Below, piece after piece: positions 52,001 to 55,000 of a stretch of 64,000 nt of DNA (position 1 is the first letter of the stretch; each line of letters opens with the position of its first letter). The DNA is taken from the NCBI RefSeq assembly GCF_030013205.1, contig NZ_CP122649.1. One strand, 5' to 3'. Made by a program: the position numbers. Source of the stretch: Escherichia coli (GTDB lineage Bacteria; Pseudomonadota; Gammaproteobacteria; Enterobacterales; Enterobacteriaceae).

Positions 52001-55000
52001 GTTTTTAACGGAGGGAAGTTCAGTGGTCAAGGGGTTACCTGTCTCTCGCTCCCCGCAGTAACATTAATAAAAGTAACTTTTCCTTCCCGAACTTATCAGG
52101 AGGGGCAGGAACAAATCACAATGTCGAGCCCGGACCAGGCACTATTTTCTGAAGATGTCCGGAAAAACTGCGCCGGTACGTGTGTTCTTACCGGCGTTCT
52201 AGGCAGACAAAGAACTGAGGCTGCGCACATAAAACCCCGTCATGCTGGTGGTGAGCCGGATGTGACAAACGGGATTCTACTGCGAAGTGACATCCATATT
52301 GGAATTTACTGCTTGGCAGGCATAATAAGAGGCAATAGAGTAAAAATCCCGAAAGAACAAGATATGCCATGTACGCTTCAATTAACGATGATATATGTCG
52401 GCATCACCTTTTTCCTAATTGTCGGTTATATCTGCCATCAAATAACTTAGAACTGATTTAGAATTGAATTTGATAAAGCTTACTACAAAGTAGTTTTGTC
52501 AATGTTCAACCTGTTTATCAAACCTACGGTGAATTTTTATGACTGGGAATGGTATCAATACTGTACGCATAAACAACGAAGTGAAACACATCTCAGAGTT
52601 AGATCCGGAGATCTCTTTTTCTTGAATGGAATAAACTGAAAAGTGAAAATAACGAACTGTATCGCTGCATAAAGGAAGCAAATTCTGGTTGGCGTGGTTT
52701 TGTCCTTCGTTTAATAGGGGTTTATCTACCTGATGGCAAAACAATTGTCATTAAACCCTAGATTATTTGAATATTCCTAAACATAGGCTTAATAAGAAAA
52801 GCCACTGAAAAGTGGCTTTTGAACTGAGCTGTTCGCGATTTTAATTTCAACTTGGGGTTCTAAGCCGGAACCGCCGAAAATTCCGTCAGCCGATCAACGT
52901 GGCTTGTCCCGCGCCCGGTCGATGGGGTAGACCCAACAGTCGTGTCACTAGCCGCCATTTCGATCACGGCAATGCCAGCCGGACGTCACGTCCAGATTGT
53001 TCCGGTCTGGATGAGGCCGACTGACGTCTCGGATGACGGGTGGCATACAACTGCTGTGAGTCCTGCAGGGGGGCAGCTGCCTGACCGGACGGCGAGCATC
53101 AGCCCATCTCATGTATTAGTCATGTCAGCTTTGACACTGCGCACGCGACGGCACCCGACCCGTTGCAGACCCCCAGACATATGGAAAGCTGACGCTCAAC
53201 GTGGAGTTAGCCGGCGCGGCGCGGCTTCATCGCGCAGCGTCCGTGTTGATGGATGGGTTAGAACTCTCTGGGGCACACATTTGAGAAAGACTATTTTTCA
53301 GCCAACGCAAAACCCGCGTTGCCAGATGCAACCACTGAGACAAATACAAACGGCACTGGACTAGTATTTAGAGCGCCATGCACTTGGCCAGGTTTTGCTA
53401 TGGCAATATCTCCAGCCTTTAGATGAGCGACTTTGCCGCCTCCTTGGTAATACTCAGCCTCTCCAGAGATAACCGTCCAAGTATCTTGGCCGTCCGGGTG
53501 AACATGAGCGGTTATTTCTTGCCCAGGATGGGCATGCCAAACAACAACTGCTGAGTCCTTGGTTTCCAGAACCACTGAACGAATTGGTTCGCCGTCAGAC
53601 GGACTAATATATTCTGTTACCGAAAATATTCTTGATTCCATTTCCATATCCACTCCAAAAATCAATTTGGCTTGAGAAGTTATTACAGAACAACTGTATC
53701 CGAGAGTTCTACGTTGCCGATAACCGGCCCGAAACGGCGGCGCAACGCGCCGCTGTTGGGGGTCCGTGTTCATCGGCGGGTTAGACCTGTGCTTGCGTAA
53801 GACGAATATCGACTTCTCGGTCGACGTATTTCCATTCCTCTGACGCACGCAGTTCGGAAAGCAGCCTGTTGAACTCAACCTCATGAATTGGCGCGTATTC
53901 GAACCAATTCAGAAAATCGAACGGTTCATTCTCTGAGAGGTCGCGGCAGTGGTGGAGCTTGCGCGCTACTGCAGGCAAATACTGAAGCCCGATTTGGACG
54001 TGCTTCGACTGTTCGAAAACGCTCCGGCGTTCGTCTTGCGTGAGCTCCCACCAAGCTGCGTTCTTCCGGATCGGTATTAGCGCACCGCACGTTGCTTCTG
54101 GGCGCGCCAGACCTTGCTGCTTCGCTACAATTTCATTCTTCTCTGCGCGCATGACATATCGTTCATTGCTGGTTATTCCACGAAGTATCCAGGGTGCATT
54201 GGTTTCAGACTGCAACTCTGAAGCGGATACGACGTTGAGCCTTTTGGCTTCAGGCAGGGGCTCGCCAACTCTCGTTTCGGCCCTGACAATCCGCCAAGGG
54301 CCAATGTCTGCGCCGACGAAAGCAAATAATCGTGTATCCATTTCAATCTTTCATGTGTGAATGTTTTAACTCTTGCAGCTTCGAAGAACCTATCTGCCGA
54401 TCCCGTGATTGTGCATCATCGCCTCCGCGCAACTGCGACGACCGCCCGCAGCAATCACATTGAACTTTCGAATCGAAACTGCTGAAGCGAACCTACGCGG
54501 ACGTACGGCCGCAGTCTGTGCGCTGCCGGACGGAGCGCTGCCAATTTGCGCCTACTGGCAGGCTGTGAGTGCGCGGATGGGCCAGCGACCTCCCTTCATA
54601 GAGGGAGCGAAGCAGGTCAGAGACACTATTGAACGTCCGCTACCGGGAAGATGCTTGACCGTCCGCAACTGGCCGCCTGCCGCCGACCGCGGTCTGGCTC
54701 GAAAGCAGTCTGTCAACGCGCCGTTTCATTGTTGCCATGATCATCTCTTAATCGCGCACAGGCGGCCACAGGCGGGCAGTATGAACCAGCGTCAGTATCC
54801 ACACCGTTTCGCCGTCGATCTGATACACCAGGCGATAGCTTTCGTGCGGGATCAACTCGCGGGTCCCGGGAATCTTTCCGGCACTGTTGCAAATAGTCGG
54901 TGGTGATAAACTTATCATCCCCTTTTGCTGATGGAGCTGCACATGAACCCATTCAAAGGCCGGCATTTTCAGCGTGACATCATTCTGTGGGCCGTACGCT

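Follow-up and report, generated by a model that had tools for sequence, protein, structure and literature searches.

The segment at positions 52854-54879 of the window (the whole 64,000-nucleotide stretch of Escherichia coli contig NZ_CP122649.1 that was analyzed) is foreign DNA, and almost certainly represents the left arm of the Tn3-family transposon Tn5501.3 (Tn3000 subgroup), carried in an IncHI1 plasmid and later cut by IS26. It corresponds to bp 1-2026 of the 6,344-bp element, with a single mismatch to the reference copy in pAKD4 (GQ983559.1), which was entered as Tn5501.3 in an earlier survey (Lima-Mendez et al., 2020; PMC7157771). Alignment over all 2,026 of the 2,026 bp, at 99.85-100% identity, was obtained with pAKD4, pDSM1084, pMOL28, and approximately 14 further plasmids, and the plasmids with such matches are mostly from Betaproteobacteria. 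A preliminary description of this islet had considered its boundaries and origin undefined and proposed a search for the parental element; that search led to Tn5501.3, a named transposon whose left arm comes with a defined inverted repeat (IR) and target duplication.

The sharp change in base composition previously placed near 52850 was recovered, with the exact left boundary lying 4 bp away, at 52854. The final 450 bp of backbone have a GC content of 34.8%, compared with 55% over the segment. The label "GC-rich" holds relative to the backbone (44% over window positions 1-52853), but the enrichment is moderate and non-uniform: the value is 61% over the initial 308 bp, whereas the cupin gene has 47.6% and the chlorite dismutase gene, cld, 52.9%. 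The features of the segment and its surroundings are collected in Table 1.

Table 1. Features at and around the Tn5501.3 left arm (window positions).
Feature	Positions	Strand	Remarks
IncHI1 backbone hairpin, bidirectional terminator	52797-52820		dG -20.3 kcal/mol, z -5.1
Target-site duplication AACTT, left copy	52849-52853		Right copy beyond the window, after the right IR
Left terminal IR of Tn5501.3, 38 bp	52854-52891	+	GGGGTTCTAAGCCGGAACCGCCGAAAATTCCGTCAGCC; begins GGGG
Tn5501 scaffold left end, 308 bp	52854-53161	+	61% GC; no annotated gene; scaffold homology
Tn5501.3 passenger module: cupin, cld, cld upstream region	53162-54669	-	Right limit approximate (54653-54670)
Cupin_2 monocupin gene, 118 aa	53291-53647	-	WP_029396232.1; Pfam PF07883, E 2e-14
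GC-rich imperfect stem-loop, cld-cupin spacer	53723-53767	-	Directly 3′ of cld stop; without U-tract
cld, 186-aa lineage-2 (short, dimeric-type) chlorite dismutase	53781-54341	-	WP_011514928.1; profile and structure matches
Block of ~85 bp upstream of cld	54342-54425	-	~86% conserved with the other enterobacterial plasmid cld lineage
parE/relE-family toxin 3′ remnant, last 43 codons and stop	54748-54879	-	PGAP pseudogene; TIGR02385, E 2.5e-4
IS26, 820 bp, IS6 family	54880-55699	+	14-bp IRs at 54880 and 55686-55699

The insertion can be read from the IncHI1 plasmid of E. coli ETEC4079 (NZ_CP122645.1), which is 100% identical to the window over positions 50000-64000. In this plasmid, the duplication stands in the context ...CTTAGAACCCC/AACTT/AGATGAGG, and the right arm of the transposon terminates as ...GAACCCC/AACTT/AGATGAGG, leading into hns. 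The uninterrupted site is found in the IncHI1 plasmids KV7 and R27; in one of these, the empty-site junction reads ...TTTCAACTT/AGATGAGG. Intact copies of Tn5501.3 likewise possess 38-bp IRs and a 5-bp duplication (CTTCG in the copy examined); the left IR matches the right IR, located outside the window in NZ_CP122645.1, at 35 of 38 positions. The bidirectional terminator noted earlier at 52797 is substantiated by a perfect 10-bp stem with a GAAA loop, by flanking A- and T-runs, and by the folding values in Table 1. This hairpin is part of the backbone, outside the islet, and in plasmids lacking the insertion it lies approximately 30 nt beyond the plasmid hns stop codon. Tn5501.3 transposed into the IncHI1 plasmid between that stop codon and this terminator, duplicating AACTT and displacing the native terminator from hns.

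The junctions also bear on whether the segment could instead be a chromosomal fragment captured by IS26 (a translocatable unit) or an independent genomic islet, rather than a transposon arm. The segment does adjoin IS26, and the same 2,026 bp and IS26 junction recur in p94EC-4, where the DNA flanking them on either outer side is different. However, the left edge coincides exactly with the Tn5501 IR in every context, and the left edge is free of IS26 within the window. Moreover, the presence of the right arm and the 5-bp duplication in NZ_CP122645.1 refutes this explanation for the window's plasmid, and it is exceedingly improbable overall.

The intact element starts with an IR and the 308-bp scaffold end, continues with the passenger (cupin and cld, both oriented toward that IR), the toxin-antitoxin genes parE and parD, res, tnpR, and tnpA, and ends with the second IR. 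The 308-bp scaffold end is common to Tn5501 derivatives with unrelated passengers (97-100% identity). Among four sibling transposons, scaffold homology stops at Tn 308/309 and restarts at Tn 1800-1817. The same scaffold and passenger slot are found in Tn5501.9 of pB8 (qacF), Tn5501.6 (blaNPS-1), Tn5501.10 of pICP-4GES (blaPAU-1), and Tn5501.7; whereas the sibling passengers are resistance or catabolic genes, that of Tn5501.3 consists of cld and the cupin gene. Tn5501 derivatives thus exchange unrelated passengers across a left junction that does not vary and a right junction confined to 17 bp, which hints at a possible, if improbable, slot-specific acquisition mechanism not described before.

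Compared with Tn5501.3 of pAKD4, the islet agrees in its IR, 308-bp end, cupin, cld, and parE 3′ end. It differs in that the window keeps only the left third of the element, that parE is cut by IS26, and that the cupin carries an R15S substitution, resulting from the single nucleotide difference at 53605. The remainder of Tn5501.3 was sought within the window and not found; the window thus holds Tn 1-2026 only, short of a complete transposition module (parDE, res, tnpR, and tnpA). The islet had been said to stop exactly at the left IR of IS26, and indeed, this IR (GGCACTGTTGCAAA) begins at 54880, with the matching right IR finishing at 55699; between them, tnp26 (54943-55647) encodes a 234-aa transposase annotated as IS26 family. 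At 54880, IS26 interrupts the parE/relE toxin gene, which is intact in complete Tn5501.3 copies and lacks its 5′ part at this junction, and the multiresistance region starts there.

In NZ_CP122645.1, the other arm of Tn5501.3 lies approximately 13 kb onward across IS26-bounded resistance DNA, past the end of the window, and is followed by AACTT and hns. Here, Tn 4069-6344 follows a third IS26, Tn 2182-2488 is inverted beside a second IS26, and Tn 2027-2181 and 2489-4068 are absent, such that, relative to pAKD4, res and tnpR are deleted along with 5′ tnpA. Because the right arm, AACTT, and hns are found past the resistance DNA, the IS26 region carrying floR-strAB-msr(E)/mph(E) is nested in Tn5501.3. 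The physical linkage of cld to resistance genes put forward in the preliminary description is therefore real and closer than first thought, with both located inside the same transposon; as a consequence of this nesting, the cld-cupin pair and the resistance genes are inherited as one block.

After the transposon had inserted, IS26 entered parE, and further IS26-associated rearrangement brought the floR, strAB, and msr(E)-mph(E) genes into Tn5501.3 and removed res and tnpR along with the 5′ portion of tnpA. Owing to this disruption and loss, the islet is no longer able to transpose alone, and it now moves with the plasmid or through IS26-mediated or homologous events. Shared 8-bp flanks that could order the events were sought among the IS26 copies and none were found, so the order of the IS26 events cannot be reconstructed. 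A further plasmid, pSA20030575.1, is identical only as far as IS26, with hns and the right arm deleted, and it was rejected as the source in favor of NZ_CP122645.1.

The Cld-family and cupin genes reported in the islet are both present, and the family assignment of the former withstood a profile search: Pfam PF06778 matches residues 39-180 (E 6.1e-9, 36 bits). Structure-based matches extend nearly end to end. Residues 1-183 align to PaCld (9GTJ) with an E of 7.5e-79 and 64% identity, residues 7-184 to NwCld (3QPI; E 5.9e-59), and residues 5-181 to Cyanothece Cld (5K8Z); identity to NwCld, Cyanothece Cld, and KpCld is lower than that to PaCld. Together with the length of 186 aa, these alignments to lineage-2 Clds uphold the earlier assignment to the short clade. 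KpCld is likewise one of the lineage-2 (dimeric) Clds. PaCld 9GTJ, a crystallized protein of P. aeruginosa, is a dimeric, haem-b-bound, chlorite-degrading enzyme (PMC12525007).

A check of the haem-binding and catalytic residues, suggested at the outset, gave a consistent result. The proximal haem ligand His114 is kept, aligning with His115 of PaCld and His114 of NwCld, as is the distal Arg127, which aligns with Arg128 of PaCld and Arg127 of NwCld and the Cyanothece enzyme. The distal Arg separates functional Clds from HemQ-type proteins. Gln75, Arg61, and Glu169 are also conserved, and the lineage-2 Clds named above (PaCld, NwCld, Cyanothece Cld, and KpCld) resemble the islet Cld in length, in both the proximal His and the distal Arg, and in Gln75 and Arg61. 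The protein could in principle be another superfamily member, such as a coproheme decarboxylase (HemQ/ChdC) or a Cld-like protein inactive on chlorite, given that the Pfam family spans both kinds of protein, that the Pfam score of 36 bits is modest, and that an NCBIfam search with the protein returned no family match. This is very unlikely in view of the full-length alignment, at 64% identity, to PaCld, whose chlorite degradation has been measured, the strong NwCld and Cyanothece matches, the presence of Arg127, and a length that suits the short lineage-2 type.

Close homology and residue conservation therefore point to an enzymatically competent chlorite dismutase, which, being devoid of an N-terminal extension, is presumably cytoplasmic. 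Chlorate is reduced by nitrate reductase to chlorite, which is damaging unless degraded. As judged from its sequence, the predicted cytoplasmic haem-b enzyme would convert ClO2- to Cl- and O2, and would thereby shield the cell from chlorite, including that made by nitrate reductases from chlorate.

The cupin and cld genes had been described as convergent; both instead lie in tandem on the minus strand, with cld upstream, cupin downstream, and a spacer of 133 bp. The 151-nt spacer region folds with a z of -3.2, and its hairpin is possibly a transcript-stabilizing or attenuating element. A Shine-Dalgarno sequence, GGAG, lies 7 nt upstream of the cupin gene; the ribosome-binding site of cld is weak. 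The block upstream of cld is the likeliest location of a putative cld promoter/operator. A scan for sigma-70 consensus promoters over the whole islet found none, terminator-like sites in the islet occur at chance level (3 versus 2.7 expected), and Rfam models matched nothing between 52500 and 55000 at E<=1. The outward-reading end of IS26 was also considered as part of a hybrid promoter, which was rejected by eye for want of an acceptable -10 at 16-18 bp. Two plus-strand ORFs had been suspected of being spurious, and most likely are: one (52942-53364) spans the scaffold/passenger junction, the other (54409-54906) extends into IS26, and both lack a family match (including NCBIfam) and are unannotated in all public copies.

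The missing promoter consensus feeds a different view of the passenger, in which cld and the cupin gene are silent baggage from Betaproteobacteria, unexpressed or useless in E. coli and Salmonella, and the resistance linkage is selectively meaningless. Also in keeping with this view, the transposon's own upstream operon was severed by IS26, separating cld from the parDE promoter that is a candidate source of read-through in the intact element, and the element is seldom met in E. coli, being carried by 2 of 5,426 complete genomes. Conversely, all three enterobacterial plasmids with the truncated islet keep both ORFs intact, despite destruction of the adjoining transposon genes, and the upstream block of 85 bp is conserved across two cld lineages. 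In addition, a different cld allele, 86.5% identical in nucleotide sequence to that of the islet, occurs commonly on plasmids of Klebsiella and Enterobacter, with 362 records at 80-90% identity, which suggests that Cld is useful in Enterobacterales. On balance, silent carriage is a serious possibility, if a somewhat improbable one.

The cupin contains the motifs G-x5-H-x-H-x3-Q and P-G-x2-H-x3-N, as read from its sequence, the first bearing Gln where many cupins have Glu. It is approximately 85% identical to the uncharacterized PDB entry 3H8U. A mandelonitrile-lyase-like identity was rejected (NCBIfam score of 25 bits versus a cutoff of 140). The Cld-linked cupin "subfamily 3" is likewise small, single-domain, and found beside cld in transposase-bearing neighborhoods (Barnum & Coates, 2022; PMC9751292). 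Its members are without assigned function; the islet cupin, whose gene follows cld on the same strand, is a putative metal-binding protein that is probably co-transcribed with cld and genetically tied to Cld.

Tn5501.3 is thus already known, as are its Cld protein, the partner cupin, and the link to the transposase. The exact protein, WP_011514928.1, is present in 18 genera, and its partner cupin's subfamily has been recorded as Cld-linked, as have the Tn3-family transposase WP_012077404.1, the resolvase WP_012435588.1, and the toxin-antitoxin pair WP_011342942/1 (Barnum & Coates, 2022; PMC9751292). Other mobile elements have also been reported to carry cld together with antibiotic-resistance genes, for example Tn7774/Tn6163-type transposons in clc-type ICEs (PMC11823659). 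The Tn7774/Tn6163-type elements are a different transposon in a different host, with cld in a class 1 integron context, whereas the islet cld is a native passenger of Tn5501.3. Literature searches combining IncHI1 with chlorite dismutase, and the Tn3 family with toxin-antitoxin and chlorite dismutase, found nothing. RefSeq PGAP annotation already includes the partial toxin gene, a partial Tn3-family tnpA, and hns.

Since the element is named and the region annotated, the significance of the finding as it stands is little. Added here are the exact boundaries, the nesting of the multiresistance region in Tn5501.3, and the landing site between hns and the terminator. Co-selection of antibiotic resistance by biocides or oxidants through cld may follow from this arrangement; the idea is not new, as the protein, cupin partner, and transposase linkage on which it draws were set out previously (Barnum & Coates, 2022; PMC9751292). 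In its fullest form, cld and the cupin gene, the latter encoding a hitherto uncharacterized reactive-chlorine-metabolism enzyme, would be expressed from their own promoter in porcine E. coli and confer tolerance to chlorite, chlorate, or chlorine-dioxide-type sanitizers, such that chlorine-based water or feed treatment would co-select the IncHI1 plasmid with its floR-strAB-msr(E)/mph(E) genes. We regard this full scenario as unlikely. Nevertheless, if cld, with or without the cupin gene, does aid Enterobacterales under chlorine oxyanions, chlorine sanitation on farms and in water treatment would be a co-selector of antibiotic resistance.

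The GC-rich islet at window positions 52854-54879 is the truncated, non-autonomous left arm (Tn 1-2026 in transposon coordinates) of the Tn3-family transposon Tn5501.3. Megablast of 52400-55000 against plasmids matched this segment at 99.7-100% identity to a block found mainly in Betaproteobacteria, with carriers including Cupriavidus pMOL28, Acidovorax, Hydrogenophaga, Alicycliphilus, Achromobacter, and IncP-1 plasmids such as pAKD4. In Hydrogenophaga pDSM1084 and pAKD4, an intact element of 6,344 bp starts with this block at its left and is ordered as terminal inverted repeat (IR), ~440 bp without an annotated gene, cupin (-), cld (-), relE/parE toxin (-), antitoxin (-), tnpR (+), tnpA (+), and IR; the pDSM1084 copy has 38-bp terminal repeats (GGGGTTCTAAGCC...) and a 5-bp duplication, CTTCG. 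The pAKD4 element (GQ983559.1) is Tn5501.3 of the Tn3000 subgroup, and Tn5501 derivatives are near-identical scaffolds carrying different passenger genes (Lima-Mendez et al., 2020; PMC7157771). A single base (53605) separates the window from the pAKD4 copy, changing cupin residue 15 from Arg to Ser. The boundaries and origin of the islet, considered undefined in the preliminary description, are thus those of a known transposon arm.

That description was otherwise largely correct apart from gene orientation. The composition profile climbs sharply near 52850, from 34.8% GC in the final 450 bp of backbone (44% over the whole upstream window) to 55% in the islet (the first 308 bp reach 61%, against 47.6% for the cupin gene and 52.9% for cld). 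The terminator proposed at 52797 has a perfect 10-bp stem closed by a GAAA loop, with an A-run on one side and a T-run on the other (dG -20.3 kcal/mol; z -5.1 versus shuffles), and the islet does end where IS26 begins, at exactly 54880. The cupin and cld genes had been called convergent; however, both lie on the minus strand, in tandem with cld first and a 133-bp spacer, and that placement is therefore wrong. Two plus-strand ORFs, already suspected of being spurious, are best treated as such: neither has a family match, and both are unannotated in every public copy.

Features of the islet and the adjoining insertion sequence (window coordinates)
Feature	Position	Strand	Remarks
plus-strand ORF	52942-53364	+	straddles the scaffold/passenger junction
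cupin gene	53291-53647	-	in the ORF list and public annotation
cld	53781-54341	-	in the ORF list and public annotation
plus-strand ORF	54409-54906	+	antisense to the parE remnant; runs into IS26
IS26	54880-55699		starts GGCACTGTTGCAAA

Comparison of five Tn5501 derivatives with unrelated passengers (cld-cupin, qacF, a NYN-domain gene, lysR-blaPAU-1, and a 7.4-kb catabolic block; the window and sibling loci L010, L011, L016, and L018) suggests that the transposon has a fixed passenger slot. The left scaffold/passenger junction is identical in all five (Tn 308/309, window 53161/53162, after ...GGCACCCGACCC), and the right junctions all lie in one 17-bp stretch (Tn 1800-1817, window 54653-54670, before TGGCCGCCTGCCGC). 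The final ~12 nt of each passenger are loosely alike, and an 18-nt imperfect direct repeat (54629-54646 / 54655-54672) spans the right junction in the window.

Insertion-free relatives among the IncHI1 plasmids (E. coli KV7; R27) have ...TTTCAACTT joined directly to AGATGAGG... at the site; the plasmid hns gene, read from the minus strand, stops at the TTA. Over positions 50000-64000, the window matches plasmid NZ_CP122645.1 of E. coli ETEC4079 (pig faeces, Belgium) at 100% identity. There, Tn 1-2026 is followed by IS26, Tn 2182-2488 (parD) is inverted and adjoins a second IS26, and Tn 4069-6344 follows a third, ending ...CTTAGAACCCC, then AACTT, then AGATGAGG, straight into hns. AACTT also directly precedes the left IR in the window (52849-52853), and its presence on both transposon ends shows that Tn5501.3 entered as an intact element, landing between the stop codon of hns and the terminator hairpin of that gene. 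The IS26-bounded floR, strAB, and msr(E)-mph(E) region was assembled later within the transposon, with loss of Tn 2027-2181 and 2489-4068 (5' parE, res, tnpR, and 5' tnpA). PGAP annotation already includes hns and labels the toxin gene and the Tn3-family transposase as partial. The DNA from IS26 onward is the start of this multiresistance region, nested in the transposon; the IS26 copies have no 8-bp flanks in common that would put the IS26 events in order.

The AACTT duplication keeps the hns coding sequence intact (window 52797-52853; 20531-20949 in the ETEC4079 plasmid), and the hns transcript now enters the transposon right end, not its native terminator. The surviving parD antitoxin gene (14514-14835 in the same plasmid; beyond the window, at ~64513-64834) lies directly upstream of msr(E), has an altered C-terminus (annotated WP_029396366.1), and is an orphan because its cognate parE toxin gene is destroyed. 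To the right of IS26 (55700-57112) are a 5'-truncated IS91-family transposase remnant and a DUF3363 gene, followed by floR; the IRL of the second IS26 starts at 63693, close to the window end. At 52297/52298, the backbone lacks ~485 bp relative to R27 (4299-4784 in L006), in or beside an HNH-endonuclease-like gene, a shorter form common to E. coli KV7-type IncHI1 plasmids.

The identical 2,026 bp, IS26 junction, and cupin R15S variant occur in two other plasmids, which suggests that the IS26 insertion into parE preceded further spread of the element. The Salmonella IncHI1 plasmid pSA20030575.1 carries the islet with hns and the right arm deleted. In E. coli p94EC-4 (47 kb; human, Singapore; 13422-15447), the left IR lies within a Tn3-family tnpA instead, and the DNA past IS26 differs too. 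At 80% coverage or more, the islet is present in 17 plasmids (PLSDB), and it occurs in 2 of 5,426 complete E. coli genomes; plasmids of Klebsiella and Enterobacter commonly carry a different cld allele, of ~86.5% nucleotide identity (PLSDB). A cupin gene of ~80% nucleotide identity (WP_001348195.1; L015 4001-4375) adjoins IS26 in dozens of E. coli multiresistance plasmids and a few chromosomes, with no cld beside it at the one locus examined (L015). In K. quasipneumoniae NZ_CP058136.1 (12.5 kb), the islet is in two pieces with aadB (ant(2'')-Ia) and a duplicated cupin annotation between them, which looks like insertion of a resistance gene into the cld-cupin module.

A GGAG ribosome-binding site of its own precedes the cupin gene, which lies downstream of cld in the same orientation; the spacer between the two holds a GC-rich hairpin that lacks a U-tract, and co-transcription is predicted as likely. 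The cupin matches Cupin_2 (E 2e-14), shares ~85% identity with the uncharacterised double-stranded beta-helix protein of PDB 3H8U, and retains the metal-binding histidines in its motifs, as judged from its sequence. Upstream of cld in the intact transposon, and oriented alike, is the parDE operon, a link severed by IS26 in the window. No promoter was identified in the islet and no Rfam element in its region; the best candidate promoter region is the ~85 bp upstream of cld, 86% conserved with the other enterobacterial cld lineage.

The feature has been described before. The islet-encoded Cld is WP_011514928.1, a single protein common to 18 genera (Barnum and Coates, 2022; PMC9751292). The same survey found Cld accompanied by a cupin subfamily in 1,487 genomes, above all where identical Clds sit in neighbourhoods that bear transposases, and the examples in its table of Cld-linked families (TnpA WP_012077404.1, resolvase WP_012435588.1, and toxin-antitoxin pair WP_011342942/1) are those of Tn5501.3. 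A chlorite dismutase gene in a Tn3-like transposon is mentioned by IncP-1 surveys, and carriage of cld with resistance genes on other elements has been noted (PMC11823659). In the collection of papers searched, none linked IncHI1 with Cld.

The Cld assignment is backed by a Pfam match (PF06778, E 6e-9) and by end-to-end alignment with solved lineage-2 Clds (9GTJ, E 7.5e-79; NwCld 3QPI, 5.9e-59; Cyanothece Cld 5K8Z, 1.4e-50). The P. aeruginosa enzyme, 9GTJ, was shown to degrade chlorite and to be a dimer with haem b; its proximal histidine is His115 and its distal arginine Arg128, and it has Gln75 (PMC12525007). The window protein, 64% identical to it, keeps His114, Arg127, Gln75, Arg61, and Glu169; with both the profile match and the catalytic residues in place, the Cld reading is supported at the level of sequence. 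Clds of lineage 2, as also summarised by Barnum and Coates (2022; PMC9751292), are small haem enzymes of the cytoplasm that turn chlorite into chloride and O2. Cellular chlorite is produced by nitrate reductases acting on chlorate or perchlorate and is harmful unless degraded. In E. coli or Salmonella, hosts with such reductases, Cld would most likely serve to protect the cell from chlorite, be it a product of chlorate reduction inside the cell or taken in from outside. Its carriage beside the resistance region may thereby permit co-selection of oxidant or biocide tolerance with antibiotic resistance, a possibility that others have raised before in general form.
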